Origin: Candidatus Omnitrophota bacterium
GTDB taxonomy: Bacteria; Omnitrophota; Gorgyraeia; Gygaellales; Profunditerraquicolaceae
DNA length: 64,000 nt
Assembly (NCBI GenBank): GCA_043823435.1
Contig: JBDRAV010000003.1
Coordinates: 32,366 to 96,365 of the forward strand
Reading direction: 5' to 3'
Below, piece by piece: positions 1,592 through 58,020 of this stretch (the first letter of the stretch is position 1; every line of letters begins with the position of its first letter). The translations under genes and the position numbers were made by a program. Under the pieces are notes generated by a model. The model was not told the origin of the DNA, did not search any database, and saw only the letters and a list, made by a program, of their open reading frames with translations.

Positions 1592-1666
1592 TCGGGGCGA
1601 GTGGACTTGAACCACCGACCTCAGCGTCCCGAACGCTGCGCTCTAGCCAAACTGAGCCACGCCCCG
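1592..1666 (-). tRNA. tRNA-Pro (anticodon CGG)
   Basis: Reverse complement reads CGGGGCG-TG-GCTC-AGTTTGGCTA-GAGC-G-CAGCG-TTCGGGA-CGCTG-AGGTC-GGTGG-TTCAAGT-CCACT-CGCCCCG-A. This is a full cloverleaf of 75 nt with CGG in the anticodon loop; CCA is not encoded. Confidence 0.9.
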
Positions 1667-1998: not shown

Positions 1999-2027
1999 AG
2001 TATAACAAAAATTAATGGAATTGGCAA
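1999..2027 (-). promoter_or_regulatory. Sigma70-type promoter TTGCCA-17-TATACT reading into the hairpin array and tRNA-Pro
   Basis: On the plus strand, tggcaa at 2022-2027 and agtata at 1999-2004, with an exact 17-nt spacer. It lies between the ribE stop (2066) and repeat unit 5. Confidence 0.6.
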
Positions 2028-2065
2028 TAATTACAAGTTAACATAATGTTGGCGGGTGATTTTGT

Positions 2066-2647
2066 TCAGGCGTCAACTCCGGATTTCTTGGCGAGGATAT
2101 CGAATTCAATATTGACCGTATCTGACGGGCCCTTGAACCCCAGGGTAGTATTCTTAAGGGTGTGCGGAATTACGTAAATAGCGAAAGTGCTTGCTTTTTT
2201 ATCCATGACGGTCAGGCTGATACCGTCTACAGCAACAGAACCTTTGGGCAAAATATAGCGCATGGATTTCACAGGTACGGCTATTTCAAAACAGAGATTA
2301 CCGTTAACATATCTTCTCCGCCGTATTACTCCGGTTAAATCGATATGGCCCGTGACAAAATGGCCGGAGAGCCTCTCTCCTATCTTTAAAGCGCGTTCCA
2401 GATTAACCTTCCCTTTTATCTTAAGATTCCCCAGGTTAGTAGCCTTAAGGGTCTCGGGCATAACCTCAAAGCTCACACTATCTTCTGCTTTTTCTACCAC
2501 GGTAAGGCAGGTACCGTTTACGGAAACGCTGTCGCCTTTCTTGGTATCCTGAGGTATTATTCTTGCATGTATCATCAATAAAGTAAGATTACCCCGCCTG
2601 GATATCTTTATTACTTCTCCTAATTCCTCTATTATTCCGCTGAACAT
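2066..2647 (-). CDS. ribE: Riboflavin synthase (alpha chain)
   Basis: MFSGIIEELGEV.. with two internally repeated lumazine-binding halves (..GDSVSVNGTCLTV.. and ..GSVAVDGISLTV..). Start moved to the ATG at 2645-2647; the track's GTG at 2659 lies inside the repeat element. Confidence 0.9.
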   Translation of the reverse strand: MFSGIIEELGEVIKISRRGNLTLLMIHARIIPQDTKKGDSVSVNGTCLTVVEKAEDSVSFEVMPETLKATNLGNLKIKGKVNLERALKIGERLSGHFVTGHIDLTGVIRRRRYVNGNLCFEIAVPVKSMRYILPKGSVAVDGISLTVMDKKASTFAIYVIPHTLKNTTLGFKGPSDTVNIEFDILAKKSGVDA

Positions 2648-2887
2648 AAGTGAGTGCACAATTTATGGAACGCCCCGCTACTCTAACTTAGGGTAACGGC
2701 GGGGTCCCGCCCTATATTACATGATTAGCGGGAAGTGAACATAAATTGTCTGCACGAACTTATACCTGACGCCTTGCTTTGTGGAACATAGCGTCAGGTA
2801 TTAATTCGCAGACGCTCGGAGACAGTAAAATTATGGACGCTATAACTTATTGCGCTACTTCGTAGCTCCATAAGTTATCTGCTCATT
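2648..2887. repeat. Composite mosaic element: two palindromic E1 units head to head around a central hairpin
   Basis: The left unit 2648-2760 is the AAGTGAGT.. variant and carries the 92-nt insert. The central hairpin is tacctgacgc/gcgtcaggta (2763-2772/2791-2800). The right unit 2806-2887 is inverted, with stem ataacttat/ataagttat (2842-2850/2870-2878) and terminus ctgctcatt. Together they fill the whole ribD-ribE spacer. Confidence 0.8.
2658..2749. ncRNA. Three-way-junction (TWJ) insert, copy 1 (candidate structured RNA or ssDNA element)
   Basis: Outer stem acaatttatg/cataaattgt. Hairpin CCCCGC..GCGGGG has a ~20-nt loop. Hairpin CCCGC..GCGGG has the conserved loop CTATATTACATGATTA. The junction carries GA/GA mismatches. 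Confidence 0.45.
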
Positions 2888-3974
2888 AAACATGCCCTTC
2901 TATCAGAAAGTCTTCGCCCATTCTCCTGAATCCGACTTCCTTTAATTTAAACGCTTTATCTATGCGCGCAACACCCTTGCCCATAACCGAGCTGATCGCA
3001 TCTTTTCCTCCTATGATTTTAGGACTGACAAAAAACAATACTTTATCCACGAGCCCTTCATCAAAGAGGCCTCCAATCAATGTCCCCCCGCCTTCAACAA
3101 GGATGCTGGTTATCTCAAGCTGCGCCAGCTTTTTCATCATATCTCTCAGATTTATCTGGCCTGATCTCTCCTTTACTTCCAATATCCTGGCCTTAGTGGA
3201 TAATACATTCCTATTCGCCGTCTCCTGCCCTGTTTTCACCGGTAAGGTAACGATTATTACGGAGCTATTACGGGAAAAGATACTGGTTTCTTCCGGAGTG
3301 CTCAACTGGCTGTCCACTATGATCTTAATAGGTTGTCTCCTGGAAAACCAGGCATCAAGCTTTGGATTATCTCTTAATACCGTATTCACGCCAACCATGA
3401 TCGCATCATAATGTACGCGCATCCGGTGTGCATAAAGGCGCGACACATCAGAAGTTATCCATTTCGAATTCCCGGTACGGGTTGCGATCTTCCCGTCCAG
3501 AGACTGCCCCACTTTAACCGTAACAAAAGGCATCTTGCGGGTAATATACTTAATAAAAGCTTCATTCAGTTTCTTTAATTTATCTGCAAGGAATCCCGTT
3601 TCGACCTTTATCTTCTGCGCCTTGAGTATCTTTATACCTTTACCGTTGTTGACGGGATTTGGATCAAGCATCCCCACAAAGACCCTTTTAATACCGCTCT
3701 TAATTATCTTATCTACGCATGGCGGAGTCCTCCCGAAATGCGCACATGGCTCAAGGGTCACGTAAAGATCTGCTCCTCTGGTTTGAAGCCCTGCGTCATC
3801 CAGGGCTAAAGATTCTGCATGAGGAAACCCAGCTTTATCGTGATAGCCACGGCCTATTATCCGGCCGTTCTTTACTACCACCGACCCGACGATAGGATTA
3901 GGGGAAGTCTTGTCTTTCCCTTTCAAAGCCAGCCTCAGGGCTAAATTCATAAAATATTCGTGGCCTCTAGGCAT
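2886..3974 (-). CDS. ribD: Bifunctional diaminohydroxyphosphoribosylaminopyrimidine deaminase / 5-amino-6-(5-phosphoribosylamino)uracil reductase
   Basis: N-terminal deaminase zinc motifs (FPHAE, LEPCAHFGRTPPC) plus a C-terminal RibD reductase domain; sits in rib operon context. Confidence 0.9.
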   Translation of the reverse strand: MPRGHEYFMNLALRLALKGKDKTSPNPIVGSVVVKNGRIIGRGYHDKAGFPHAESLALDDAGLQTRGADLYVTLEPCAHFGRTPPCVDKIIKSGIKRVFVGMLDPNPVNNGKGIKILKAQKIKVETGFLADKLKKLNEAFIKYITRKMPFVTVKVGQSLDGKIATRTGNSKWITSDVSRLYAHRMRVHYDAIMVGVNTVLRDNPKLDAWFSRRQPIKIIVDSQLSTPEETSIFSRNSSVIIVTLPVKTGQETANRNVLSTKARILEVKERSGQINLRDMMKKLAQLEITSILVEGGGTLIGGLFDEGLVDKVLFFVSPKIIGGKDAISSVMGKGVARIDKAFKLKEVGFRRMGEDFLIEGHV

Positions 3975-3978
3975 ATAT

Positions 3979-4800
3979 TTAAATCCTGTTTTGAGCTGCT
4001 TTCAACTTAACCACCAATTCATATGGAATTTTGACCGATCCTACCTTTACTTCTGGTTTAGCATTACCGTGGCAATCCGAACCTCCGGTAACCAATAAAT
4101 CATATTTTTTTGCTAAATTAAGATAGAAATTTATCATTGTACGGGTATATTCCGGATAATAAACTTCCAGACCCATGAGACCATAACCAACCAGTTCCGG
4201 TATCAACTCATCGCTATCAAGGGTATGCGGGTGAGCCAACACGGGTATCCCTCCTGCCCCCTTGATCAAGCCTATCGCTTCTATCGGTGGGAGCCTGAAA
4301 CCGCAGACATATGCGGGACACTTATCGCCGATGTATTTACGGAAGGCCTCTGCCGTAGAGCCAATAAGGCCTTCATTGACCATCGCCCTGGCAACATGGA
4401 GCCTGCCCACTGTGCCGTCTCCTGCAACATCAAACACGGAATCCGCATTGAAACGCAAGCCCATATCCTTAAGCCTGTCCGTTATCCTGTAGATACGCTC
4501 AATACGATTTTCTTTCAGAATATCTAACATGTCTAACAGGTTAGTATTTTTATAATCAATCAGGTATCCCAAAAGATGCACCTCTTTCCCGTCATGTTCT
4601 ACGGTAAGTTCTATGCCTGACAAGACTTCGATACCTTTTTCACCGGCCGCCTTTATCGCCGGCTCTACTCCGCAAACTGTGTCATGGTCGGTAACCGCGA
4701 TTGCCGCTAGAGCGCTATTTGAGCTCTCATTAACAAGTTCATCAGGAGCGTATGTCCCGTCCGAAAAGATAGTATGCAAATGCAGATCGGCAAATTTCAT
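3979..4800 (-). CDS. PHP-domain metal-dependent phosphoesterase (TrpH/YciV-like)
   Basis: MKFADLHLHTIFSDG start, later ..VTDHD.. and ..GGSDCHG.. metal ligands typical of the PHP family. Overlaps nusB by 4 bp. Confidence 0.75.
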   Translation of the reverse strand: MKFADLHLHTIFSDGTYAPDELVNESSNSALAAIAVTDHDTVCGVEPAIKAAGEKGIEVLSGIELTVEHDGKEVHLLGYLIDYKNTNLLDMLDILKENRIERIYRITDRLKDMGLRFNADSVFDVAGDGTVGRLHVARAMVNEGLIGSTAEAFRKYIGDKCPAYVCGFRLPPIEAIGLIKGAGGIPVLAHPHTLDSDELIPELVGYGLMGLEVYYPEYTRTMINFYLNLAKKYDLLVTGGSDCHGNAKPEVKVGSVKIPYELVVKLKAAQNRI

Positions 4801-5213
4801 TTTTCCTTTTTTAATTTTATTTTGTCAAGGATGCCATTGACGAACTTACTTGCCTCCAGGCTTGAATATTTCTTAGCCAATTCTACCGCTTCATTAATCG
4901 ATACCTTAAACGGTATATCATCGCGGAAGACAAGCTCGAAGCACCCCATACGCAAGATATTCCTATCCACTACCGCCATACGCTTAAGCTGCCAGTTGGT
5001 CGCATATCGAGCAATATTTTCATCGATGGCGTCCTTGTTTTCGATTACACCCTTGACTAACTCGCGGGTAAAATCCCTTATCTCATCGCTTGTATCATCT
5101 TCCCTGCGTGCCTGCCAAAAATTATTCAATGATTCATTATAATTGTCGTGCGTGATATCTGTCTGGTAAAGCACCTGCAGGGCGAATTCACGTGCTAAAG
5201 TACGTTTACGCAT
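4797..5213 (-). CDS. nusB: Transcription antitermination factor NusB
   Basis: 138 aa, REFALQVLYQ.. N-terminus and all-helical NusB layout; the classic position next to ribH. Confidence 0.85.
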   Translation of the reverse strand: MRKRTLAREFALQVLYQTDITHDNYNESLNNFWQARREDDTSDEIRDFTRELVKGVIENKDAIDENIARYATNWQLKRMAVVDRNILRMGCFELVFRDDIPFKVSINEAVELAKKYSSLEASKFVNGILDKIKLKKEK

Positions 5214-5359
5214 AAATGAGCAGACGGCTTACAGAGCATAGACTTACGTTTCAAGCGATGTAAATCGTAGACCGCAAGGCCGTCTGCGAGTTTATCCCGA
5301 CGAATGCGTAAAAGTTTTATTTAAAATTTTTACGCGGCATATGAGTCGGGATTAGGTTA
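5214..5359 (+). repeat. Mosaic element (E1 variant plus nested hairpin module)
   Basis: AAATGAGC at 5214-5221 directly abuts the nusB start. Long-range stem gcagacggc/gccgtctgc (5220-5228/5279-5287). Then nested stems TCCCGAC..GTCGGGA and GCGTAAAA..TTTTACGC. Ends ..attaggtta at the ribH stop. Confidence 0.7.
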
Positions 5360-5827
5360 TTATTTTATCTGTGTTAACAGGTTTACCATTTCAATGGCAG
5401 ATAAAGCAGCATCCCTGCCCTTATTGCCCTCTTTTGTGCCCGCACGCTCTACTGCCTGCTCAATGGTATCGGCGGTAATAATGCCGAAAATCACGGGCAG
5501 TCCGGTATCCAATGAAACCTTAGCGATACCCTTGGTTACTTCCGAGGCGATATAATCGAAATGCGGCGTTGAGCCCCGGATAACCGTACCCAGACAAATC
5601 AGGGCATCATATGACTTTGACTTAGCTAATTTCTGCGCAATCAAAGGAACTTCAAACGCCCCCGGGACCCATGTAACTGTCAGCTCATCGTTATCTGCCC
5701 CGTGCCTGACCAGCGTATTAAGACACCCGCTGACCAGTTCCTTGGTAATAAAATCATTGAAACGAGAAGCTATAACTGCGAATTTCCTGCCTTTGGCAAT
5801 TAAATTGCCCTCCCTTGTTTTTACCAT
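5360..5827 (-). CDS. ribH: 6,7-dimethyl-8-ribityllumazine synthase
   Basis: [28 protein letters not shown].. Start moved to the ATG at 5825-5827, which follows AAGGAGGG; the track start at 5851 lies inside the repeat. Confidence 0.9.
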
Positions 5828-5849
5828 CTTTCCCTCCTTAAATGAGCAC

Positions 5850-5942
5850 ATAACTTACGAGCACGTCCCGCTATTCTCATTTGAGATAACGGCGGGATCC
5901 CGCCCGATATTGCATGATGAGCGGGAAGTGCGAGTAAGTTAT
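5850..5942. ncRNA. TWJ insert, copy 2
   Basis: Outer stem ataacttac/gtaagttat, GA/GA junction, stem GCAC/GTGC, hairpin TCCCGC..GCGGGA (T-A replaces C-G of copy 1), hairpin CCCGC..GCGGG with loop CGATATTGCATGATGA. Confidence 0.45.
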
Positions 5943-6050
5943 TGTGCTAGCTTCTTCACTTTGTTCAGAACCGTCCACGATTCCTTAAGTAAAGCGAAGG
6001 ACGATTTATGCCCCACCTTATTAAGAACTATAAAAGAGCCCAATGAACGC

Positions 6051-6141
6051 ACAACTTAGCGAGCCCCCGCTCGGCTATTTAAAGCAAATGCAAGGTCCCG
6101 CCCGATAATCACATGATTAGCGGGAAGCAAAGCTAAGTTGT
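6051..6141. ncRNA. TWJ insert, copy 4 (first hairpin degenerate)
   Basis: Outer stem acaacttagc/gctaagttgt. The second hairpin CCCGCC..GCGGG with loop CGATAATCACATGATTA is retained. Confidence 0.35.
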
Positions 6142-6192
6142 ATGCGCGAATTTACATCCTACCTTATTAAAAGCCATAAAAGGATGTTAGGT

Positions 6193-7416
6193 TCAATCTA
6201 TATCCAGATTATGACCAAGCTTCTCCTTCTTGGTCTTAAGATAATTATAATTTTCCGGGTTAGGAGCGATCTCAAGAGGAAATCTCTCAACCACCACAAG
6301 GCCATAGCCTTCCAAGCCTACAATCTTGCGGGGATTGTTCGTAAGAAGCCTGATATTCTTAAGTCCCAGGTCCGCGAGAACCTGAGCCCCTATTCCGTAA
6401 TCTCTGAGGTCTGCCTTATGCCCCAATGCTTCATTTGCCTCCACAGTATCAAGACCCTTATCCTGCAAATTATAGGCCTTTATCTTCTCCGCAAGGCCTA
6501 TGCCACGGCCCTCCTGGCTCATATAAAGAATAACTCCTTTTTTTTGACGGCCGATGATCTCCATTGCCTTATCAAGCTGCTTGCCGCAATCACAACGCAA
6601 GGACCCGAATACATCTCCGGTAAGGCATTCGGAATGCACCCGAACAAGGGTTGCAGAATTATCAAGTTTACCCATAGTAAGCGCAATATGAAAATGCTTG
6701 TGGATCAGGTCCCTGTATAGTATCAATTCGTAAGTTCCGTATTCCGTAGGAAGTATAGTCCGGGAAACCCGTTCGATCAGTTTTTCAGAACGCCTTCGGT
6801 ATTGGATAAGATCAGCTATTGAACAGATCTTAAGGCGGTGCTCCTTGGAAAATTCCAACAACTGCGGGAGCCTTGCCATCGCGCCGTTATCATTCATAAT
6901 TTCACAGATTACTGCTGCAGGATAAAGACTGGCCATCTTCATAAGATCTACGGATGCCTCGGTATGGCCTGCCCTTACCAGAACTCCTCCTTTAAGCGCC
7001 CTCAGAGGAAAGATATGACCGGGCCTGACCAAATCTACCGGTTGAGAAGCGGGATTTACTAAGACCTCTATTGTACGCGAACGGTCATAAGCAGAAATAC
7101 CTGTAGTAATGCCTTTGGCTGCATCCGCCGAAATCATCCATGCGGTAGAAAAAAGGTCTTTTCTATTATATATATCTTTGCTTTCCAGCATCGGTTGCAA
7201 AGCTAACTCCTGTAATCTTTCATCTTCCATGGGCACACAGATCAGCCCGCGACCATGCTTTGCCATGAAGTTTATATCATCCGGCCTGGCAAAAGATGCA
7301 GCCATAACCAGATCCCCTTCATTCTCGCGGTCCTCATCATCCACGACAATAACCATCTTGCCGGCCTTTAAATCTTCCAGTATTTCAGGTATATTATTAA
7401 GCATAAGTGAAGACAT
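6193..7416 (-). CDS. ribBA: Bifunctional 3,4-dihydroxy-2-butanone-4-phosphate synthase / GTP cyclohydrolase II
   Basis: DHBP synthase half (MVIVVDDEDRENEGDLV) plus GTP cyclohydrolase II half (CLTGDVFGSLRCDCG, QEGRGIGL). The true start may be the ATG at 7402-7404, because codons 1-4 lie inside the repeat. Confidence 0.9.
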   Translation of the reverse strand: MSSLMLNNIPEILEDLKAGKMVIVVDDEDRENEGDLVMAASFARPDDINFMAKHGRGLICVPMEDERLQELALQPMLESKDIYNRKDLFSTAWMISADAAKGITTGISAYDRSRTIEVLVNPASQPVDLVRPGHIFPLRALKGGVLVRAGHTEASVDLMKMASLYPAAVICEIMNDNGAMARLPQLLEFSKEHRLKICSIADLIQYRRRSEKLIERVSRTILPTEYGTYELILYRDLIHKHFHIALTMGKLDNSATLVRVHSECLTGDVFGSLRCDCGKQLDKAMEIIGRQKKGVILYMSQEGRGIGLAEKIKAYNLQDKGLDTVEANEALGHKADLRDYGIGAQVLADLGLKNIRLLTNNPRKIVGLEGYGLVVVERFPLEIAPNPENYNYLKTKKEKLGHNLDID

Positions 7417-7639
7417 AATTTATGGAGCGCCCCGCTACTACATTTTGAGATAACGGCGGGGTCCCGCACCATATTACATGATTATCGGGAAACGAACATA
7501 AATTATTTGTCTGAACTTATACCTTGCGTTTTACCTTGTAAAACGCAAGGTATTAATTCGCAGGCGCTGATAGACAGTAAAATAATAAACGCTATAACTT
7601 ATGCCGCTACTTCGTAGCTCCATAAGTTATCCGCTCATT
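7405..7639. repeat. Composite mosaic element, same architecture as 2648-2887
   Basis: Left unit with TWJ insert. Central perfect 14-bp hairpin taccttgcgtttta/taaaacgcaaggta (7520-7533/7539-7552). Inverted right unit with ataacttat/ataagttat (7594-7602/7622-7630), ending ccgctcatt. Confidence 0.8.
7415..7506. ncRNA. TWJ insert, copy 3
   Basis: Outer stem ataatttatg/cataaattat, hairpin CCCCGC..GCGGGG, hairpin CCCG..CGGG with loop ..CCATATTACATGATTAT. Confidence 0.45.
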
Positions 7640-7670
7640 AAAAAAAATAAACCCGAAGATAATCTTCGGG
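7640..7670 (-). terminator. Intrinsic terminator, expression platform of the FMN riboswitch
   Basis: Minus strand reads CCCGAAG-AUUAU-CUUCGGG followed by UUUAUUUUUUUU. The 5' arm is complementary to the riboswitch P1 5' strand (UAAUCUUCGGGG), giving the usual antiterminator alternative. Confidence 0.8.
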
Positions 7671-7685
7671 CGATAGAAAAACTTA

Positions 7686-7885
7686 TTAATCCTCTCCTAT
7701 CTGGACTATCCACCCAATTCAATTTGATGAATCGGTGTCCGCTGCTGCGGCACCCGATCCTATCTGATGAATCGGTGTCCGCTGCTGCGGAACCATCGGC
7801 CCCGGAATGTCACCGGGTCTGCCCCATTTTGTGGGGCTCGCGGGCTCTACCGCCGGTAAGGAATTCCACCTTCCCCGAAGATTAA
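7686..7885 (-). promoter_or_regulatory. FMN riboswitch (RFN element), unusually long
   Basis: Minus strand reads CUUCGGGGAAGGUGGAAUUCCUUACCGGCGGUAGAGCCCGCGAGCC..GGUGACAUUCCGGGGCCGAUGGU..AUAGUCCAGAUAGGAGAGG. This matches the conserved RFN core. P1 is UUAAUCUUC/GAGGAUUAA. It lies upstream of ribBA. Confidence 0.9.
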
Positions 7886-7896
7886 TGTATTTATAA

Positions 7897-7924
7897 ATTA
7901 TAGCAAAAAAACTTACCTTGTCAA
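7897..7924 (-). promoter_or_regulatory. Sigma70-type promoter TTGACA-16-TATAAT for the FMN riboswitch and rib operon
   Basis: On the plus strand, tgtcaa at 7919-7924 and attata at 7897-7902. The predicted start is a few nt before riboswitch P1. Confidence 0.65.
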
Positions 7925-7946
7925 TAGAATTAAAAGGATTTATAAT
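7918..7946 (+). promoter_or_regulatory. Sigma70-type promoter TTGTCA-17-TATAAT for the CinA-domain gene (near-leaderless)
   Basis: ttgtca at 7918-7923 and tataat at 7941-7946. Only 8 nt separate the -10 box from the ATG at 7955, and there is no SD. Confidence 0.6.
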
Positions 7947-7954
7947 AGGGTCTT

Positions 7955-8416
7955 ATGGAACCCGTTATAAATAAAATACATGAATTTCTCTTAAAAAACA
8001 AGAAAACCATTGCCGTAGCAGAATCCTGCACGGGAGGTGTCTTATCAGGAATGCTCACCAAGACTCCGGGGAGTTCCGGGTATTTCATCCTGGGGATAGT
8101 GGCGTATAGCAACGCGGCAAAGGAGAAGATCCTAAAGATACCTCACCGGCTCATCGCGAAAAAAGGGGCGGTTTCCAGAGAAGTGGCCGAGGGCCTGGCT
8201 CATTCCATAAGAAAGCTTTCTGGAGCTGACTTCGGCATAGGCATAACCGGCATAGCAGGCCCTGCAGGCGGATCAAAAGAAAAGCCGGTAGGTACTGTAT
8301 TTATTGCGGTAGAATCAAAAAATAGAAAAATCTGCCAGCAATTCAACTTCACCGGCACCCGCTCCGCCATACGCAAGAAATCTGCTTTAAAAACATTGGG
8401 ATTGTTAAAAAACTAA
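7955..8416 (+). CDS. CinA C-terminal domain protein / nicotinamide-nucleotide amidohydrolase (PncC-like)
   Basis: 153 aa; ..TIAVAESCTGGVLSGMLT..GIGITGIAGPAGG.. is typical of the CinA/PncC domain. Confidence 0.8.
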   Translation: MEPVINKIHEFLLKNKKTIAVAESCTGGVLSGMLTKTPGSSGYFILGIVAYSNAAKEKILKIPHRLIAKKGAVSREVAEGLAHSIRKLSGADFGIGITGIAGPAGGSKEKPVGTVFIAVESKNRKICQQFNFTGTRSAIRKKSALKTLGLLKN

Positions 8417-12275: not shown

Positions 12276-14446
12276 TCTCCGCTCTCCTGCGGCATTATCT
12301 CATTTTCAAGCCATGCCTCTCTGTCAATCAGGATCCTGCGCGGCTTACTGCCTTCAAACGGACCGATAACGCCCTCCTGCTCCATCATGTCGATAATACG
12401 GGCGGCGCGCGTATAGCCTAGGCGCAGTCGTCTCTGCAATATCGATACCGATGCCTGCCCGCTCTCCATGATCACCTTAACCGCTTCATCGTAAAAATCG
12501 TCTTTTTCCCCGTTGACAAGAGTGGACTTCTGCTGTTCTTTTAATATCTCTTCATCGTAAAGCGGTTGCGCCTGAGACTTGATAAAATCCACTATTCCGT
12601 CAATCTCTTTGTCGTTAAGCAGGGACCCTTGGGCACGTATTAATTTCGACTCACCCGGACGCAAAAATAACATATCGCCTCTGCCTAAAAGTTTATCCGC
12701 TCCGTTCATATCCAATACTGTGCGCGAGTCCACTTTTGAAGCTACCTTAAAGGATATGCGCGCAGGAAAATTCGCCTTGATCACTCCTGTGATCACGTCC
12801 ACCGAAGGCCTCTGCGTAGCCAGGATCAAATGTATGCCTACAGCGCGCGAAAGCTGCGCCAGGCGCGTAATCGCGCTCTCGATCTGGTCGCGCGCCACAG
12901 TCATCAGGTCAGCAAGCTCATCGATAATAACCACAATATAGGGAAGCTTTTCCTGCTTCTGGTTGTAGGCTTCGATATTCCTCACCCCCACTTTAGCCAA
13001 AAGCTGATAACGCTCCTCCATCTCATTTACCACCCAATTAAGGGCAACAGATGCCTTCTTGGCGTCAGTCACCACAGGGCATAAAAGATGCGCCAGCCCG
13101 TTAAAAGGCGCCAACTCCACCATCTTAGGGTCAACCATAAGAAATTTTAATTCGTTCGGGGTTGATTTGAAAAGCATGGATAAGATCAAACAGTTCATAC
13201 ACACGGTTTTACCTGAACCGGTTGTGCCTGCAATCAAAAGATGAGGCATATCCCCAAGATCATCCACCACGGGCTGTCCTGAAATATCCTTTCCCAGGGC
13301 AAGAGTCAATTTCGATTCTGATTTTTGAAATTCCGTAGATGCCAGGACCTCTTTTAAATAAACAAAACTGCTCTGCGTATTAGGGACCTCAACCCCTACC
13401 CTCCCCTTTCCCGGTATAGGCGCCACTATTCTCACCGACTGCGCCTTCATGGCCAGGGCGATATCGTCGCCTAAAACCACGATACGGTTCAGCTTAACTC
13501 CCGGAGCGGGCTCCAGTTCATAACGCGTGATTATAGGCCCCCGTTCGATATCGGTAACTTTAACTGAAATGCCAAAATCATCCAGGGTATCTTCGAGAAT
13601 ACGGGCATTAGCAGCAAGGTCATCCTTTATCTGCCTCGCTTCGAAGGGAGGAGGCGATTCTAATAAATCAAGGGAGGGTAAATGATAGTCGCCGATCTTT
13701 ACCTCCTGAGGCTTCACATTAACCGCTTCCGCAGGCGCCTTAGTTTTTATTTTGATCTTAGGTTGAGACAATACCGCGGGTTTAACGGACACTGACTCAG
13801 CCATTTTCTGCTTTACTGTTGAGACCAAAGACCCATTGGGCTCTTTTTTCTCCGGGGATGCCGGCTTTATTAACACCCTTTTGGGTTTAAACTTAAAACT
13901 TAATACCGGTTTGAACACGAAATGGGCTTTATTTACAATATTCTGGAATAGTGATGAAATCAATATCTCGGTGACTAATGCGAGAGACAAAATAATAAAA
14001 GTAAAGAATATGATGAATCCGCCTAATCTGCTGAAATACGCGGTAATAAAATTAGAAACAACCGCCCCCAGGACCCCTGAATAATAAATCCTGATATGCT
14101 CATTCCTTAAATTGAACATACCGATAAGCGCCGCAATCGATAACAACAGTATCAACAAGCCCAGGACTCTGGGAATGTTTAAATAAGGAGTCTCTTGTCT
14201 AAAGAATTTTATTCCTAATAAAATAATGAATAAAGGGATCAGAAAAGCGGTGGGCCTTCCAAATAAAGATACGATTGCACCGCCAAGATATGCGCCAAAT
14301 AAACCTAAAAGATTATGTTCCGGATTGGGAGGGTAGCCGAAAAACGGGATTTCGTACAGGTCAACCTTGATCAGACTGGCCAGAACCATCAGGCCTGCGG
14401 CTACAAAGATAATGCCGCGGAGTTCATTTAACCTTCGCTCTTTCAC
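12272..14446 (-). CDS. ftsK: DNA translocase FtsK
   Basis: N-terminal TM segments, Walker A GTTGSGKT, and a C-terminal gamma domain SVSILQRRLRLGYTRAARIID. Confidence 0.9.
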   Translation of the reverse strand: MKERRLNELRGIIFVAAGLMVLASLIKVDLYEIPFFGYPPNPEHNLLGLFGAYLGGAIVSLFGRPTAFLIPLFIILLGIKFFRQETPYLNIPRVLGLLILLLSIAALIGMFNLRNEHIRIYYSGVLGAVVSNFITAYFSRLGGFIIFFTFIILSLALVTEILISSLFQNIVNKAHFVFKPVLSFKFKPKRVLIKPASPEKKEPNGSLVSTVKQKMAESVSVKPAVLSQPKIKIKTKAPAEAVNVKPQEVKIGDYHLPSLDLLESPPPFEARQIKDDLAANARILEDTLDDFGISVKVTDIERGPIITRYELEPAPGVKLNRIVVLGDDIALAMKAQSVRIVAPIPGKGRVGVEVPNTQSSFVYLKEVLASTEFQKSESKLTLALGKDISGQPVVDDLGDMPHLLIAGTTGSGKTVCMNCLILSMLFKSTPNELKFLMVDPKMVELAPFNGLAHLLCPVVTDAKKASVALNWVVNEMEERYQLLAKVGVRNIEAYNQKQEKLPYIVVIIDELADLMTVARDQIESAITRLAQLSRAVGIHLILATQRPSVDVITGVIKANFPARISFKVASKVDSRTVLDMNGADKLLGRGDMLFLRPGESKLIRAQGSLLNDKEIDGIVDFIKSQAQPLYDEEILKEQQKSTLVNGEKDDFYDEAVKVIMESGQASVSILQRRLRLGYTRAARIIDMMEQEGVIGPFEGSKPRRILIDREAWLENEIMPQESGE

Positions 14447-20420: not shown

Positions 20421-22112
20421 TCATCTAAAAAAGATATCCTTCCCTTGTAATAAAATGCTCCCCCTGCCATGCCAATCATCAATCTTTGGAGTATAAACCA
20501 TATCAAAACTACCGGCGTTCATCATGCTGTCTTTAAAACTGCCCATGCCAAACCCTATCGCCTCAAGGGTAATATCTCCGTCTGTAACCCAGAATTTCAA
20601 AGTATCCCTGCTTAAAATTTGCGGTTCCCCCTTGAGTTGAAGTCCTCTGGTATAAAACAAAGGTTCGGGGTTGCCTGTGCCAAAAGGCTCAAGGCCGTTG
20701 AATTCGCCTATGACTTGCGCGTTAATATCCGACAAAGATAACTCCATATCTACATCTATACTGGGTAGCAAATCTTTCAAAACCATCTTTTCTTTTGCCA
20801 GACGGTTAATCTTATCCCTGAAATCCGCTATGTTATCACTGGTTATGATAAGGCCTACGGCGTGGCTGTGGCCCCCGAATGTCTTAAGATAATCCTTACA
20901 TTCCAGAAGCGCCTCAAAGAGATGGAAATTCTTTATGGAGCGCCCGGAACCTTTACAGATACCTCCTATTTTAGATATAACGATAGTCGGCCTGTAGAAT
21001 TTATCCGCGAGTTTTGAAGCCACTATCCCTAAAACTCCCTGATGCCAATCCTCCTTGGCGATGACAATAATCTTGTGTTCCTTAAAATTGATCTCCCGGT
21101 CGATTAAATCATGCGCCTCTTCCATTATCTTCTCCTCTATCTTCTGGCGCTGGCGGTTAAGCTCTTCTATCTTCCTGGCAATAGTCAATGCCTCGTTATC
21201 ATTACGGCTCAGGAGCAGATTTAACGCAATCTCGGCTGTATCCACGCGGCCGCTGGCATTGATACGGGGAGCCAATATAAAACTTACAAAACCAGAAGTT
21301 ATCTTTTTACCTTTGATGCGGCTGGTCTCTATAAGGGCCTTGATACCGGGCCTTTCAGAATGCGTTAGTTTTACCAATCCTTCCTTGACGATAACGCGGT
21401 TCTCACCGGTAAGCGGGGCAACGTCAGCGATAGTCCCCAGAGAAACCAAATCCAGGTCATCGAGCAACTTCTTGCCGGTAATAGCCTGACAGAGCTTATA
21501 AGCCACGCCTACCCCGGCCAGATCCCGGTATTTATAACGGCTACCTTTTATTTTAGGGTTTATGACGGCCGAGGCGCAAAGCGCCATATCGTGATTTGCC
21601 GGTTCATGGTGGTCAGTCACTATCACATCTATATTATGCCGCCTTAATTCTTTTATCTCCTCATTATTACCCGTTCCGCAATCTACCGTAATCAGAAGCG
21701 ATATGCCTTTCTGCCTGGCTAATTGAATACTCTTCCTGTTTAACCCGTAACCATCATTTATTCTATGCGGGATATAATGGGTTGTTTCCACTCCTACCAT
21801 GGCAAGCGTTTCCTTTAACAGCGCAAGCGCGGTCAGGCCGTCAACATCGTAGTCCCCGAATATCATAACCTTTTTTTTATTTTTAGCCGCGTCCTTGATA
21901 ATATTGACGGCCTTTTGCATATCAACAAACAAAAACGGGTCTAACATATTGTCCGGAACAGGCATCAGAAATTCTTCTGCTTCTTCTGGATCATTAATGC
22001 CGCGGTTTATCAATAACTGGGCCAGGATATTAGAAATATCAAGCTCTCTGCTTAAAATGTTCTGCAGGTGGGATTTGGGTGAAGGGATATTTAATATTTT
22101 GTGGCTGCGCAT
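20421..22112 (-). CDS. recJ: Single-stranded-DNA-specific exonuclease RecJ
   Basis: DHH motifs (IFGDYDVDG, VDCGTGN, VIVTDHH) and a DHHA1 domain (GGHSHAVG). Confidence 0.9.
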   Translation of the reverse strand: MRSHKILNIPSPKSHLQNILSRELDISNILAQLLINRGINDPEEAEEFLMPVPDNMLDPFLFVDMQKAVNIIKDAAKNKKKVMIFGDYDVDGLTALALLKETLAMVGVETTHYIPHRINDGYGLNRKSIQLARQKGISLLITVDCGTGNNEEIKELRRHNIDVIVTDHHEPANHDMALCASAVINPKIKGSRYKYRDLAGVGVAYKLCQAITGKKLLDDLDLVSLGTIADVAPLTGENRVIVKEGLVKLTHSERPGIKALIETSRIKGKKITSGFVSFILAPRINASGRVDTAEIALNLLLSRNDNEALTIARKIEELNRQRQKIEEKIMEEAHDLIDREINFKEHKIIVIAKEDWHQGVLGIVASKLADKFYRPTIVISKIGGICKGSGRSIKNFHLFEALLECKDYLKTFGGHSHAVGLIITSDNIADFRDKINRLAKEKMVLKDLLPSIDVDMELSLSDINAQVIGEFNGLEPFGTGNPEPLFYTRGLQLKGEPQILSRDTLKFWVTDGDITLEAIGFGMGSFKDSMMNAGSFDMVYTPKIDDWHGRGSILLQGKDIFFR

Positions 22113-22201
22113 AAATGAGCAGATAACTTATGGAGCCACGAAGTGGCGATATAAGTTATAACGTCCATCATTTTATCTGTCTATCAGTGTCTGCGAATTT
22201 A
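22111..22201 (+). repeat. E1 palindromic element exactly filling the argS-recJ spacer
   Basis: TAAATGAGC..GCGAATTTA termini. Stem ataacttat/ataagttat (22123-22131/22151-22159) with inner GCCAC-GAA-GTGGC. The left end touches the recJ ATG; the right-end TTA is the argS stop codon. Confidence 0.8.
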
Positions 22202-30442: not shown

Positions 30443-30533
30443 TTATCCTTTCATAGTTTTAATGAGGTGGGATATAAATTCGCACACATAACTTACTCAC
30501 GCCATAGCGTTCGTAAGTTATGTGCTCATTTAT
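30443..30533 (-). repeat. E1 plus module B element filling the trpD-trpC spacer (sense orientation)
   Basis: Minus strand reads ATAAATGAGCACATAACTTAC..GTAAGTTATGTGTGCGAATTTATATCC..GGATAAATG. Stems at 30485-30496/30513-30524 and ATCC/GGAT (30445-30448/30470-30473). The trpD TAA lies inside the terminus. Confidence 0.8.
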
Positions 30534-35484: not shown

Positions 35485-35585
35485 TTAAATGAGCGCATAA
35501 CTTACGGAGCGCGAAGTGCGACGTAAGTTATTTGCGCGAATTTACACCCTTCCTTATTAATAAATATAAAAGGGAGTTAGGTTTA
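35485..35585 (+). repeat. E1 plus module B element filling the rho-rpmE spacer
   Basis: TTAAATGAGCGCATAACTTACGGAGCGCGAAGTGCGACGTAAGTTATTTGCGCGAATTTAC, then the hairpin CCCT..AGGG with loop TCCTTATTAATAAATATAAA. Ends ttaggttta on the rho stop. Confidence 0.8.
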
Positions 35586-38810: not shown

Positions 38811-41347
38811 TTGACCCCTTTCATTTCCGACCAGTTCCTGCCTTTTTTAATATCTACCTTAAGCGGGACATCTAATTTCATGACCTCTTCCATCCCCCTC
38901 ATTACCAAACCAATAAACTCGCCCTCTTCTTCCGCAGGCATATCAAAGACCAGCTCATCGTGTACCTGTATGATCATGGCACTCTTGAGATTCCTTGACT
39001 TGATCTCTTCGTGTATAGTGATCATGGCTAACTTTATTAAATCGCTTGCCGAACCCTGTATGGGGGTATTTATTGCCTGCCTCTCTGCGAATTGCCGTAT
39101 CCCGGGATTCTTGCTTTTAATCTCCGGGATATACCGCCTCCTGCCCAGCATGGTGGTAACAAACCCCTCTTCTCTCGCAAAGCGTATCTGCCCCTGGAGG
39201 TAATCCTTGACTTGCGGGTATCTTAAGAAATACGCATCGATGAAAATTTGTGCCTCATCAACGCCTATCCCCAGGTCACGCGATAATCCAAAAGAGGTAA
39301 GGCCGTAAATAATCCCGAAATTTACCCTCTTGGCGGTTTCGCGCATTGAATCACTGATATCTTTTTCTTCTAACCCGTAAACAAGCGAGGCGGTGATCTT
39401 GTGTATATCCCTGCCTTCGTGAAACGCAGAGATCATATCTTTGTCTTTTGAGAGATGCGCCAAAATCCTCAATTCTACCTGAGAATAATCGCATGCTAAA
39501 ATATAGCTATCTTCGTCAAACGCAATCACCGCCCGCCTGATATTCCTGCCCAGTTCCGTCTTTACAGGGAGGTTCTGAAGATTGGGTGCGCTTGAGCTGA
39601 GCCTGCCGGTCTCCGTGGCAGTCTGATTGAAAGATGCGTGTATCCTGCCCGTCTTCTGGTCTATCAGGTTAGGTAGGGAATCTATATAGGTGGATTTCAG
39701 CTTCATCAGCTGGCGATATTCCAGCAGCATGGCCGGCAGCTTGTGTTTATCCGCAAGCTTTCTCAATACCTCTTCATCGGTAGAGGGCCCGGTCTTTGAC
39801 CTTTTGATAACAGGAAGTTTTAGCCTCTCGAATAAGATATCGCGCAATTGTTTCGGAGAATTGATATTAAACTGGCTGCCGCTTGCAGTATATATATCCT
39901 CTACCAGCCCGATCAACCTATTCTCTAAATCACGGGAAAGCTTATTCAACATCTCTAAATCTATTCTTATCCCGGTCGACTCCATTGCCGCTAATACGCT
40001 TACCAGTGGCATCTCGATGCCGGTAAAAAGGTCCAGAAGCAGTTTATCGCTCAGCTCCCCTTCCAATTTCGGCCTTAACTGGTTAATGATACCGACTGCA
40101 TCCATGCTATCCACACTCCCAGGTTTCAATAATCTTCCCAAATAATCCAGGGCCAGATCATTCAGAGTGTATCCGGATTTAGAAGGGTTTATAAGATAGG
40201 CTGCTATCATAGTATCAAAATATAATCCCTCCAAAGCTATGCCGCCCTTTAATAAAGATACCTTTAGCCCTTTAAGATCATGGCCTATCTTTCTGATCCC
40301 GGGGTCCGATAATATCCCTTTAAGGTTTATACCGGGATCTTTCACCCTGAAAAACCTCTCTTTCGCATAAAACGCAAGGTCACTCAGGCTCCCGCCGTAA
40401 AGGATAAGTTCGTCTTGCGGCCTCAGCGCCTCTTTCAGTTCTTTATCTTCCAACACAACTATCTTCATATCGGGAGATCTATCTTCAGCCACATCCAGCT
40501 CTTTGAGTAATTTCTTAAACTCAAGGGATTTGAATAACCTGAACAGCTCCCGGCGGTCCGGCTCGCCTATCTTTAATTTATCCGGGTCAAAATCCAGGCT
40601 TATATTCCTGTCCAAAGTGGCTAATTCTTTATTCAATTTTATAACCCCGATATTATCGTTTACCGCTATTCTTATCTTCTCCGGCTTTATGTTGCTTATA
40701 TTGTTTAACAATCCGTCAACGGAGCCGAATTCCCCGATCAACGAAACAGCTGTTTTCTCCCCGATACCAGGGACGCTCGGAATATTATCCGCGCTATCTC
40801 CCATAAGAGCGATAAGATCGGTTATTTTCTCAGGGCCGATTCCGAAACGCTCCGAAACCTTTTTCTTATCGTAAGCAGTGCCCTCGTCTTTATAGGGGCT
40901 AAATACCGCAATACCATCATCTACCAGCTGCAGCATATCTTTATCGGAACTGACGATAGTCACGGGGATATTCTTTTCTCTGGCCCTTTCGGTGAGAGTA
41001 GCAATGATGTCATCCGCTTCGTAACCTTCGCGCTCTACTATGGCGATCCCGTAGGCGGAAATTATATTCTTTATAATAGGTATCTGTCCTGAAAGTTCAT
41101 CGGGCATGGGCGGGCGTTGTATTTTGTATTCTGCGAACTTCTTCGCCCTGAAGGTATCCCTGGAAACATCAAAGCATATTGCAAGGAGCTCGGGCTTCTT
41201 CTCCTTTAAGATCTTATTCAGTATATTTATAAATCCGTATATGGCATTCGTAGGCTGTCCGGAAGAAGTAGAGAGCGCCTTGATGGCGTAGAATGCCCGA
41301 TAGCAAAAAGCCGTAGCGTCGATTAAAAAGAGTCTTGACTCAGCCAT
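38807..41347 (-). CDS. polA: DNA polymerase I
   Basis: 5' nuclease domain, a 3'-5' exonuclease-like region, and Pol A motifs (..DYSQVELRILAH.., ..QVHDELVF..). Confidence 0.95.
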   Translation of the reverse strand: MAESRLFLIDATAFCYRAFYAIKALSTSSGQPTNAIYGFINILNKILKEKKPELLAICFDVSRDTFRAKKFAEYKIQRPPMPDELSGQIPIIKNIISAYGIAIVEREGYEADDIIATLTERAREKNIPVTIVSSDKDMLQLVDDGIAVFSPYKDEGTAYDKKKVSERFGIGPEKITDLIALMGDSADNIPSVPGIGEKTAVSLIGEFGSVDGLLNNISNIKPEKIRIAVNDNIGVIKLNKELATLDRNISLDFDPDKLKIGEPDRRELFRLFKSLEFKKLLKELDVAEDRSPDMKIVVLEDKELKEALRPQDELILYGGSLSDLAFYAKERFFRVKDPGINLKGILSDPGIRKIGHDLKGLKVSLLKGGIALEGLYFDTMIAAYLINPSKSGYTLNDLALDYLGRLLKPGSVDSMDAVGIINQLRPKLEGELSDKLLLDLFTGIEMPLVSVLAAMESTGIRIDLEMLNKLSRDLENRLIGLVEDIYTASGSQFNINSPKQLRDILFERLKLPVIKRSKTGPSTDEEVLRKLADKHKLPAMLLEYRQLMKLKSTYIDSLPNLIDQKTGRIHASFNQTATETGRLSSSAPNLQNLPVKTELGRNIRRAVIAFDEDSYILACDYSQVELRILAHLSKDKDMISAFHEGRDIHKITASLVYGLEEKDISDSMRETAKRVNFGIIYGLTSFGLSRDLGIGVDEAQIFIDAYFLRYPQVKDYLQGQIRFAREEGFVTTMLGRRRYIPEIKSKNPGIRQFAERQAINTPIQGSASDLIKLAMITIHEEIKSRNLKSAMIIQVHDELVFDMPAEEEGEFIGLVMRGMEEVMKLDVPLKVDIKKGRNWSEMKGVK

Positions 41348-41529
41348 TTAGGCTACCATTAACCAAACATGGAAATTAATGAGGCGTGACGAATATGTAG
41401 TTTATTTATGGTAAAAATGCGATATTCGATTAGGTTAGCTTCCTCTAAAGCAGTTTGGAAGGCCTGCTTGTTATTACCTGTGTTCATTATATAAGATATA
41501 AGAAAAAACTAAAAAAAGCAAGAAAAAAA

Positions 41530-41814
41530 TTAAATGAGCAGACAACTTACGGAGCGTTAGCGAAGTAAGTTGTAGCGAAGCGTCTGCGAATTTACACCAT
41601 ACTTTATTAATAACTATAAGCGGTGCTAAATGAGCCCACAACTTACGAACACGCCCCGCTCCTCTTAACTAGAATAAAGGCGGGGTCCAGCCTCTATCTT
41701 ACATAATCAGCTGGAAGTGCGAGTAAGTTGTAGCGAAGCGTCTGCGAATTTACCCCACAGCTTATTAATAATCACAAAAGGGGGATAGGATTGATGCCTA
41801 CAACTTACATTCAC
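41530..41814 (+). repeat. Mosaic element string downstream of acsB (E1, module B, E1+TWJ, module B, partial E1)
   Basis: AAATGAGC at 41532 and 41628. Stems acaacttac/gtaagttgt at 41542-41550/41565-41573 and 41638-41646/41723-41731. GCGAATTTAC at about 41586 and 41745. Confidence 0.8.
41638..41731. ncRNA. TWJ insert, copy 5
   Basis: Hairpin CCCCGC..GCGGGG. The second hairpin changes from CCCGC/GCGGG to CCAGC/GCTGG, a double compensatory change. Loop TCTATCTTACATAATCA. Confidence 0.45.
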
Positions 41815-43995: not shown

Positions 43996-44008
43996 ACCAT
44001 CTCTCCTT

Positions 44009-44335
44009 TAAATGAGCCCACAACTTACGGAACAACGTGAACGTAAGTTGTTTGGGCGAATTTACCTCCCACCTTATTAATAAACAATAAAAGGAGGATA
44101 AGTTATATCCCATAACTTACGGAACGCAAGTGAACGTAAGTTGTTTGGGCGAATTTACCTCCCACCTTATTAATAAACAATAAAAGGAGGATAAGTTATA
44201 TCCCACAACTTACGGAACAACGTGAACGTAAGTTGTTTGGGCGAATTTACCTCCCACCTTATTAATAAACAATAAAAGGAGGATAAGTTATATCCCACAA
44301 CTTACGGAACGCAAGTGAACGTAAGTTGTTTGGGC
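44009..44335 (+). repeat. Tandem array, 3.5 units of 92/93 bp (E1 hairpin plus module B hairpin), ABAB pattern
   Basis: Units start at 44017, 44109, 44202 and 44294. Units 1 and 3 have loop AACAACGTGAA; units 2 and 4 have AACGCAAGTGAA. The last unit is truncated after TTTGGGC. Confidence 0.9.
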
Positions 44336-44450
44336 TAGTTCTTCGCTTTGCTTCGGAATCATCCGCAATCACCAAATATAGCAACGGATGAATTTACTTC
44401 GCTTGCTTCCAAGCATTTTGGATGCGAAGCAAATCCAAGACTCTAAGCTT
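44336..44450 (+). repeat. Module C copy plus terminal hairpin
   Basis: ctagttcttcgctttgcttcggaatCATCCGcaatcaccaaatatagcaaCGGATGaattta parallels 5947-6010, with CGTCC/GGACG replaced by CATCCG/CGGATG. It is followed by the hairpin CTTCGC..TCCAA-GCATT-TTGGA..GCGAAG. Confidence 0.65.
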
Positions 44451-57680: not shown

Positions 57681-57880
57681 AATATTAACGAAAGGATAAT
57701 GCTGATTAATATGGATGTTGTTACTGGAAAGTAAAAACTGAAATTCTTCTTTTGCACATATATATCTCCCGGAAGCCTGCCGATAAAGGGTATCTTATGT
57801 GCAAAATTGAAGAATACGCCTATGCCGATTAAAATAACCCCGAAAAAGATTAACGTCTTCCCTAATGCCTGCATTTTCAT
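57659..57880 (-). CDS. DUF2905-like small membrane protein
   Basis: Two TM segments flanking ..IGRLPGDIYV.. Start moved to an internal ATG (MKMQALGK..). Confidence 0.55.
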   Translation of the reverse strand: MKMQALGKTLIFFGVILIGIGVFFNFAHKIPFIGRLPGDIYVQKKNFSFYFPVTTSILISIILSLILWLWSRR

Positions 57881-58020
57881 AAAGGGACTGACCCCCACAG
57901 GAGGGTGGGACACCAAACCATTCCCGCAGGAGGCGGGACACTCAACAATCATTTATGTTGAGGTGCAGATAGGTTTGGGTGCCTATGAAGAAACCTAAGT
58001 GGTCTATCCCTGACAAATTG

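Follow-up and report, generated by a model that had tools for sequence, protein, structure and literature searches.

Short imperfect palindromes that lie mostly in intergenic spacers and reach a high, lineage-specific copy number are known from enterobacteria and pseudomonads as REP, BIME and REPIN elements (PMC3116915, PMC3337134). Here we analyze a 64 kb stretch of DNA from a Candidatus Omnitrophota bacterium (contig JBDRAV010000003.1, positions 32,366 to 96,365; below, the window), where a repeat that we call E1 carries, in five copies, a 60-nt guest with two hairpins in its tip. An earlier reading of the sequence alone (the sequence-only reading) had placed four of these copies in front of the riboflavin genes ribE, ribH (two copies) and ribBA and the fifth in the acsB-polA spacer, and these gene identities hold. 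We interpret the feature as two nested families of selfish palindromic repeats, not as a gene-specific regulatory RNA, and put the probability of this interpretation at roughly 0.65. E1 shares with REP, BIME and REPIN elements the placement and copy number just described, the occurrence as singlets, clusters and inverted doublets around a spacer, the compensatory changes in its stems and the co-transcription with operons, and at one ligA site the twin hairpin, like them, shows no target duplication. E1 is unlike them in being longer and more elaborate (it has three helices, a bulge and an internal loop that does not vary), in having no GTAG-type 5′ motif, and in hosting another palindromic family in its tip.

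This nesting has a parallel in IS1397 and ISKpn1, which insert into the loop of REP palindromes: there too one mobile element sits in the apical loop of another palindrome, but IS1397 and ISKpn1 are full, transposase-encoding insertion sequences, whereas the guest here is non-coding and 60 nt long. Modular mosaics are also known in the BOX elements of pneumococci and the Correia elements of Neisseria, which have stable RNA folds, lie beside start codons and may alter mRNA stability or processing. Like them, E1 with its module varies in the number and kind of internal modules and is placed by start codons; unlike them, it has no similarity to their sequences, and we saw no Correia-type TA duplications, promoter parts or integration host factor sites in it. 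Rickettsia palindromic elements (RPE), 100-150 bp long and AT-rich, are palindromic repeats that sit in frame inside protein genes without destroying them, and are not known to have a transposase. The twin hairpin shares with them the lack of a known transposase and the in-frame coding placement, in a CCA-adding-enzyme gene and in the loop of a major facilitator superfamily (MFS) transporter, but its coding versions are 33-45 nt long and GC-clamped, and the host phylum is unrelated. RPE are mentioned in PMC1166351 and PMC1458961.

The module-bearing element is described 5′ to 3′ on the minus strand, which is the strand of the genes. E1 consists of about 60 nt plus an upstream GC-clamped hairpin and is strongly structured. 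Its 5-bp basal stem covaries (UAAAU/AUUUA, UAAGU/ACUUA, UUAAU/AUUAA or UCAAU/AUUGA) and opens into an internal loop, UUC...UCA, that is invariant; above this loop come a 4-bp stem, which covaries freely, and a 9-bp stem, with an A-N bulge between the two. The 4-bp stem occurs as 11 different 4-mers and is perfectly complementary in 22 of the 24 canonical E1 units from the window and the other loci. The tips are of the GUUCAC-UUCG-GUUCC type, with C(UUCG)G frequent among them. By reading all intergenic spacers and running a structured search we count about 16 units in the window, 13 sense and 3 antisense to the genes, arranged as singlets, tandem arrays and head-to-head doublets. Eight doublets have the same geometry around a palindromic spacer, two of them in the window and the others at loci L001, L003, L012, L013, L015 and L017; in both window doublets the order is reversed plain E1, palindromic spacer, forward E1 with the module. 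The four tandem units upstream of acsB are 76-98% identical to one another and fill a 456-nt spacer.

The outline of E1 (basal stem, unpaired central loop, second stem, extrahelical bulge, and a tip of 14 to about 75 nt) resembles that of attC, and strand-specific features would also fit a folded single-stranded DNA site for a tyrosine recombinase, with the apical part as the variable terminal structure. We regard this as very unlikely: by inspection the ends show no R″/R′ consensus (RYYYAAC/GTTRRRY) and are of the TAAAT/ATTTA type, the neighbors are housekeeping operons in conserved order and not cassettes, and the only integrases in the loci are of ordinary XerC/D size.

In five units of the window the tip is split. 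Plain tips read GTTCAC-TTCG-TTCC or TCGCAC-TTCG-TGCTC at the DNA level, and the corresponding tip with the module reads GTTCAC-TT-(60 nt)-CG-TTCC; the insertion is precise, 60 nt long and at TT|CG of the tetraloop in three E1 subfamilies, and its orientation relative to E1 is the same in 14 of 14 copies. The sequence-only reading had described an insert that replaces the apical loop of a repeated element, and the insert can now be defined as a 60-nt module between the UU and CG of the E1 tip. All five copies that it listed are present: a degenerate core pattern (TTCCNGNTNATYATGYR-N6-10-GCNGGAYC) has five matches in the window, at exactly these copies, and none in 100 shuffles. The five copies also fold more stably than shuffled sequences on both strands (z = -2.4 to -6.6). 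The E1 tip is a general insertion or expansion point, because the unit at the ribE site of L015 and the window's unit at 5210-5290 carry other inserts.

The same core pattern was used to scan further genomes. It found one true copy among species-representative genomes, in the Omnitrophica genome L001, and ten stretches in metagenome contigs, which reduce to six distinct true copies, three duplicates and one chance match in GC-rich coding DNA (L002), which was discarded; viral contigs gave no match. The syntenic locus L012 contributes two more, which makes nine distinct copies in other Omnitrophota assemblies, and a search of the loci with covariance model R1 gave no module-bearing copies beyond those two, only partial matches at L013 and L005. 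Copies elsewhere lie between bamA and skp, in antisense, or beside unrelated or unidentified genes. That all copies have the same orientation relative to the downstream gene, as had been claimed, is true within the window, but tells little there because 50 of the 52 long open reading frames (ORFs) are on the minus strand; elsewhere three of the nine are antisense.

A tie to riboflavin genes can be tested in five relatives (L012, L013, L015, L017 and L027; RibBA 80-87% identical) that have the same operon, in the order flavin mononucleotide (FMN) riboswitch-ribBA-ribH-nusB-PHP-ribD-ribE. Upstream of ribBA, where the window has a doublet with the module, L017 has a plain E1, L015 a degenerate doublet and L013 a fragment; the site is empty in L027 and also in L012, where an ordinary Shine-Dalgarno (SD) sequence follows the riboswitch terminator. 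The ribBA-ribH spacer holds two module-bearing E1 in the window and one plain E1 in L012, and is 25-100 nt long without any E1 in L013, L015, L017 and L027. Between ribD and ribE, the window has a reversed plain E1 and copy 1, and in L012 the module is present in both partners. At the same place the two genes overlap in L013 (ATGTTTAG), L017 has no E1 and L027 an E1 remnant, and L015 has, at the position of copy 1, a forward E1 with an unrelated small junction, CAGCC-AAA-GGCUG / UCCGUC-CUAC-GGCGGA (L015:14229-14292, plus strand). The same spacers are thus empty, or hold plain E1, an unrelated junction or a reversed copy, and the link to riboflavin genes or to a ligand that the sequence-only reading implied is not supported. 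The acsB side gives a similar picture. In three loci with AcsB 89-90% identical (L028-L030, 64 kb) a search with R1 gave only marginal matches, the spacers compared contain one plain E1, and the spacer upstream of acsB measures 0-52 nt against 456 nt in the window; by its gene table the fourth acsB locus, L031, has equally compact spacers. With about 16 units in the window against marginal matches in L028-L030, the proliferation of E1 is, on this comparison, lineage-specific.

These comparisons bear directly on a tempting reading, that of a new flavin-linked riboswitch or aptamer acting on ribE, ribH and ribBA. Four of the five window copies do precede rib genes, a hairpin loop is conserved and no known class fits. 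Specifically, Rfam 15 covariance models, which include hammerhead, twister, pistol and hatchet, match only an FMN riboswitch and one tRNA in the whole window at gathering thresholds, with no match on the module, and find nothing on the module copies in 2500-8000 even at E ≤ 10, in line with the earlier statement that this is not a recognized riboswitch or ribozyme class. However, the rib association is not kept in the relatives, the other copies lie beside acsB/polA, bamA/skp and unrelated genes, and the variant at the ribE site of L015 has no long loops. The operon is already equipped with a canonical FMN riboswitch that has its terminator, and all four rib-linked copies lie downstream of it, its strong promoter and its terminator, which are the only strong promoter and terminator in 2000-8200. 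The junction has 0-2 unpaired nucleotides per strand and no expression platform, and the copies are intercistronic or 3′ of acsB. Judged by these comparative data, the riboswitch reading is close to refuted, and with it goes a tempting false positive: the three-way junction folds well, covaries and precedes riboflavin genes in several copies, yet it is not a riboswitch.

No consensus promoter was found in or beside any copy (2000-8200 and 41300-44500). A conserved UAAAUUC upstream of E1 was considered as a promoter of its own and rejected, being part of the basal stem and not a -10 box. As a separate observation, a hairpin-forming segment (GACACCGAUUCAUCA.AUAGGAUCGGGUG) is present as a 40-nt tandem duplication, 90% identical, at 7711-7790 (minus strand), where it overlaps or adjoins the 3′ part of the FMN riboswitch; the segment is single-copy in the relatives, and the rho-rpmE spacer of L028 contains repeats of similar hairpins.

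Twin hairpins with the module's stems also occur outside E1; the general form is UCCCGC-loop-GCGGGA / (U/C)CCCGC-loop-GCGGG(A/G), and the copies within E1 tips are its long-loop subfamily. At L013:18312-18379 a 66-nt twin hairpin with a related P2 loop (P2 is the UCCCGC...GCGGGA hairpin of the module) exactly fills the junction between the 3′ end of ligA and the next gene. In L012, L015 and L027 the junction is uninterrupted (...GA(A/T)TT(T/C)|AAGGAGATG...) and the genes overlap; the L013 insertion lies between GAATTT and A(C/A)GGAGATGAT, reads ...GAATTT|UCCCGC...GCGGGA|ACGGAGATG... and creates a new C-terminus of LigA, and comparison with the three uninterrupted junctions reveals no target duplication. 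In L015 a 33-nt form, UCCCGC-CAAA-GCGGGA / UCCCGC-AAAAU-GCGGGA (L015:20534-20564), is in frame in the CCA-adding-enzyme gene (L015:19465-20784), where it encodes SRQSGIPQNAG; variants in other orthologues are SPLTSGIPNSAG and SPLISGIPQNAG (alignment A4). Such a segment is present in 8 of 15 aligned orthologues and absent from 7, including those on the window's contig (P0310) and on the contig of L012, and this in-frame presence and absence holds for the short-loop 33-nt relative, not for the 60-nt form. A further twin hairpin, UCCCGC-UAU-GCGGGA / UCCCCCGCC-UUU-GGCGGGGGA (L006:2405-2438), lies in an MFS transporter gene (ORF L006:1849-3027, minus strand) at about residues 196-207, in the central loop; the Pfam MFS_1 match to this protein is in two stretches. 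Finally, a related module at L005:895-949 has a P3 loop of only 4 nt. These cases show the module as a discrete unit: orthologous sites gain or lose it, it occurs outside E1 as well, and it can sit in frame in coding DNA. Filled versus empty orthologous sites, some of them within coding sequence, are the behavior of mobile DNA. Because related modules have loops of 3-5 nt, the long loops are not required for the unit as such.

Two observations stand beside these. Five of the CCA-adding-enzyme orthologues (P0249, P0270, P0278, P0317 and P0338) have a second in-frame insertion in A4 columns 96-128, (D/G)PSTSLEGHG...ERSRTI, which looks like the translation of another GC-rich palindromic repeat. 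In the window itself, two adjacent similar hairpins, UCCCGC-CUCC-UGCGGGA and UCCCAC-CCUCC-UGUGGGGG, lie at 57880-57940 (minus strand) in a 370-nt spacer and differ by a compensatory G-C to A-U change.

The fold of the module was analyzed in alignment A3, which contains 14 sequences. The order of parts is an outer stem (e.g., ACAAUUUAUG), a 2-4-bp helix, UU, P2, P3, C and the return strands, with P2 = UCCCGC(U-AAUCAUGUAAUAUAG-G)GCGGGA and P3 = CCCCGC(about 20 nt)GCGGGG. The outer stems had been described as wholly different between copies and still complementary. The complementarity is borne out, with changes on both sides in 7 of 10 pairs, but the complete difference is not, as three U-A/A-U pairs are invariant. 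In P2 and P3 a C-G pair has been replaced in a compensatory way three times independently, by A-U in copy 5 and by U-A both in copy 2 and in the reversed L012 copy; three one-sided U-G changes come on top. Both hairpin changes singled out by the sequence-only reading are among them and are real, namely UCCCGC/GCGGGA in copy 2 (its hairpin 1, here P3) and CCAGC/GCUGG in copy 5 (its hairpin 2, here P2). An outer stem with two hairpins is therefore a possible fold with some true covariation.

A rival to this fold has to be kept in mind. RNAalifold favors pairing of the first CCCGC with the last GCGGG around a central GGCGG/CCGCC hairpin, and this extended fold is energetically on a par with the twin hairpins, being the better one in 7 of 14 copies. 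Its helix is the module's own 9/11 terminal inverted repeat (CCCGCTAaTCa / CCCGCTAcTCt). DDE-type miniature inverted-repeat transposable elements have terminal inverted repeats too, together with a fixed-length target duplication and a parent insertion sequence with the same ends; the twin hairpin at the ligA site shows no such duplication. The inner helices of the extended fold lack compensatory pairs, copy 5 breaks it, and the reversed L012 copy (L012:14114-14221) also speaks against it. It is kept as a real alternative to the twin hairpins. A loop-loop kissing contact between GUAAU (P2 loop) and GUUAC (P3 loop), judged by eye, is broken in copy 2 and only partly kept in copy 3, and is not claimed.

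The P2 loop is the best-conserved unpaired stretch, as the sequence-only reading had it, but the suggestion that it serves as a contact surface loses force, since loops in related twin hairpins are only 3-5 nt long and the junction at the ribE site of L015 has tri- and tetraloops. The same loops enter into the question of whether cistrons are separated by a catalytic three-way junction, such as a small self-cleaving ribozyme. The three-helix architecture and the multiple intercistronic copies are of the right kind for one. Against it, no Rfam ribozyme model matches even at E ≤ 10, the nucleotides of a hammerhead-type core are lacking, with linkers UU, none and C, a CAUGAUGAG-like string is present in copy 2 only, and the loops are dispensable in related modules, so we give a ribozyme next to no weight. 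Resemblances to a hammerhead-like core, to attC and to group II domain V were rejected on sequence and by comparison with Rfam.

The reading that competes most seriously with selfish repeats is that E1 and its cap form a selected cis-acting RNA, read by a host factor in the polycistronic mRNA as a protein-binding, RNase III/E-processing or 5′/3′-stabilizing site, with the spread secondary or the repeats domesticated. Phage T7 intercistronic RNase III hairpins are repeated, conserved, long hairpins with an internal loop, located just upstream of ribosome-binding sites, and in architecture and placement E1 is similar to them. Several properties of E1 and its module speak for selection on RNA and thus weigh against our own interpretation. 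Covariation is strong in all E1 helices, the UUC/UCA loop nucleotides are invariant and unpaired, and C(UUCG)G tips, an RNA-type stability motif, are frequent, all of which makes E1 more like a selected RNA than a typical REP is. The module has wobble pairs on the minus strand alone, which is the gene-sense strand (CCUUGC/GCGGGG in copy 3, whose P3 pairs on that strand only, via two G-U pairs, and CCCUGC/GCGGGG in L012), and the aligned copies never have A-C pairs; this shows, from few independent events, strand specificity of some single-stranded form. The three compensatory changes in P2 and P3 also fit an RNA. Between species with RibBA only about 85% identical, conservation of the long loops reaches about 80-95%, which implies that the loops, in master copies at least, are under selection. 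Most single E1 units are in sense orientation, at about 13 independent loci versus antisense at 3, all copies are within transcription units, and E1 ends abut an SD or AUG at ribH, rpmE, acsB, ribE, ribBA, recJ and nusB.

Further difficulties for selfish repeats are of another kind. The gene tables of the loci compared contain no transposase, RAYT or PF01797-type (Y1/HUH) gene. ATGTTTA, from the ribE start region, is found on both sides of the ribD-ribE doublet in the window (2886-2900 / 2645-2655) and in L012 (14108-14118 / 14386-14396), which is unexpected for HUH-type transposition. The doublet is flanked as GGATATGTTTA|ATGAGC...TCACTT|ATGTTTAGCGG, where L013 has the single overlapping junction, and from these sequences the repeated ATGTTTA may be either a target duplication or a microhomology junction.

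What tells against a selected cis-acting RNA is that close relatives with the same operons have no elements in those spacers. Where an E1 is antisense to the operon (2842-2878 and 7594-7630), its UUCG is still on the E1-forward strand, hence it was inherited from the source copy and not selected in place. A unit of 95 nt that enters a spacer of 15-50 nt can be expected to abut SD and stop codons, and the module also lands in coding sequence, unlike T7 sites, which are fixed parts of one genome, not polymorphic, of one orientation and not in coding DNA. On balance we consider the cis-acting RNA unlikely.

On the selfish-repeat reading, the module would spread as folded single-stranded DNA through a hairpin-specific enzyme, for example a RAYT or an IS200/IS605-type HUH transposase. 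E1 fills otherwise tiny intergenic spacers, much like REP, BIME and REPIN elements. The copies are inside operons and therefore transcribed; the transcript would fold into either the rival extended hairpin or a long hairpin with two stem-loops as its cap, a very stable structure directly in front of a ribosome-binding site or start codon, and as RNA it would be at most a generic intercistronic stabilizer, processing site or insulator. The stability, processing or translation of the mRNA may plausibly be affected in such a generic way. A more ambitious proposal, which we hold to be quite improbable, is that E1 and its guest are the visible parts of an undescribed hairpin-specific system of Omnitrophota. 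This could be either a REPIN-like population kept up by a single-copy enzyme that places one palindrome precisely in the UUCG tip of another, or a domesticated intercistronic RNA signal that a dedicated RNA-binding or processing protein reads and that sets relative cistron expression in these very compact genomes. A cognate enzyme, if found, would give a new system for studying hairpin-targeted DNA mobility. Full-text searching found no literature on repeats or RNA motifs of Omnitrophica/Omnitrophota, and we take the two nested palindromic families to be previously undescribed in this uncultivated phylum.

Table 1. Coordinates of E1 units, module copies and the FMN riboswitch in the window.
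Feature	Position	Strand	Remarks
Copy 1	2658-2749	-	E1 stem ACAAUUUAUG/CAUAAAUUGU around the twin-hairpin module; covariance-model score 130.8 bits; 12 nt 5′ of the ribE AUG (2647)
Copy 1 module, 60 nt	2673-2732	-	bounded by UU and CG of the split tetraloop; P2 at ~2705-2733, P3 (20-nt loop) at ~2673-2704
Copy 2	5850-5942	-	followed directly by GCUCAUUUAAGGAGGGAAAGAUG, the SD and the start of ribH (5827)
Copy 3	6051-6141	-	tandem, upstream of copy 2, ribBA-ribH spacer
Copy 4	7415-7506	-	10 nt upstream of the ribBA AUG (7404), no SD in between
Copy 5	41638-41731	-	acsB-polA spacer, directly after the 3′ end of acsB; a ~290-nt stretch of the spacer follows
Plain E1	2796-2890	+	tip GCUAC-UUCG-GUAGC on the plus strand; ribD stop codon in its end (TTAATGAGC); head-to-head doublet with copy 1 across palindromic spacer 2764-2799
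Plain reversed E1	7548-7642	+	partner of copy 4 across palindromic spacer 7521-7551; 89% identical to 2796-2890
Plain E1	41530-41600	-	directly downstream of copy 5; same stem ACAACUUAC/GUAAGUUGU, 14-nt tip
Four tandem plain E1	44000-44340	-	period 92-93 nt; in each unit E1 (tip GUUCAC-UUGC-GUUCC) is preceded by a hairpin, CCUCCUUUUAU..AUAAGGUGGGAGG; the last unit reaches the acsB SD
Plain E1	35485-35545	-	rho-rpmE spacer, abuts the rpmE SD
Plain E1	30474-30533	+	trpD-trpC spacer, antisense to the genes; trpD stop codon in its end
Plain E1, UUCG tip	22100-22200	-	argS-recJ spacer; recJ AUG in its 3′ end (CUCAUUUAUG)
E1 variant	5210-5290	-	upstream of nusB; stem GCAGACGGC/GCCGUCUGC, different ~50-nt apical insert
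FMN riboswitch aptamer, canonical, of the rib operon	7757-7887	-	promoter 7924-7897 (12/12 match), terminator 7671-7651; genomic context, outside the repeat itself

The coordinates of all features are collected in Table 1. Among the neighboring genes, Pfam assigns RibE, RibD, a PHP protein, NusB, RibH and PolA; RibBA has a 100% identical database protein (P0001), which also confirms its AUG start, and a 100% identical database protein confirms AcsB.

E1 and the module reshape the spacers that they enter, replacing SD regions, supplying stop and start codons and adding peptide segments to enzymes, and such repeats can mislead both gene-start calling and RNA-motif discovery in metagenome-assembled genomes of Omnitrophota. 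The AUG codons of ribE and ribBA come directly after the 3′ end of E1 (CACUCACUU-AUG) without an SD (2645-2659 and 7402-7416, minus strand), and the empty sites of L012 have GAGGUAAGG-AUG in place of CACUCACUU-AUG. The starts of the longest ORFs, GUG at 2659 and AUG at 7416, fall within the E1 stem, and ribE of L012 is annotated from such an in-stem AUG.

Two other arrays were noted in passing. Upstream of ribBA in L017, four tandem units of about 59 nt (GGTCTATCCTTTCTGGATTAGACCCCTCCTTTAAAGGTTCGGAG) lie between a reversed and a forward E1 (L017:9690-9860, plus strand). Immediately beside the tRNA gene of the window (1592-1666, minus strand), a segment of about 51 nt is directly repeated at 1675-1854, with three copies at a spacing of 64-65 nt, two of them identical and one 61% identical.

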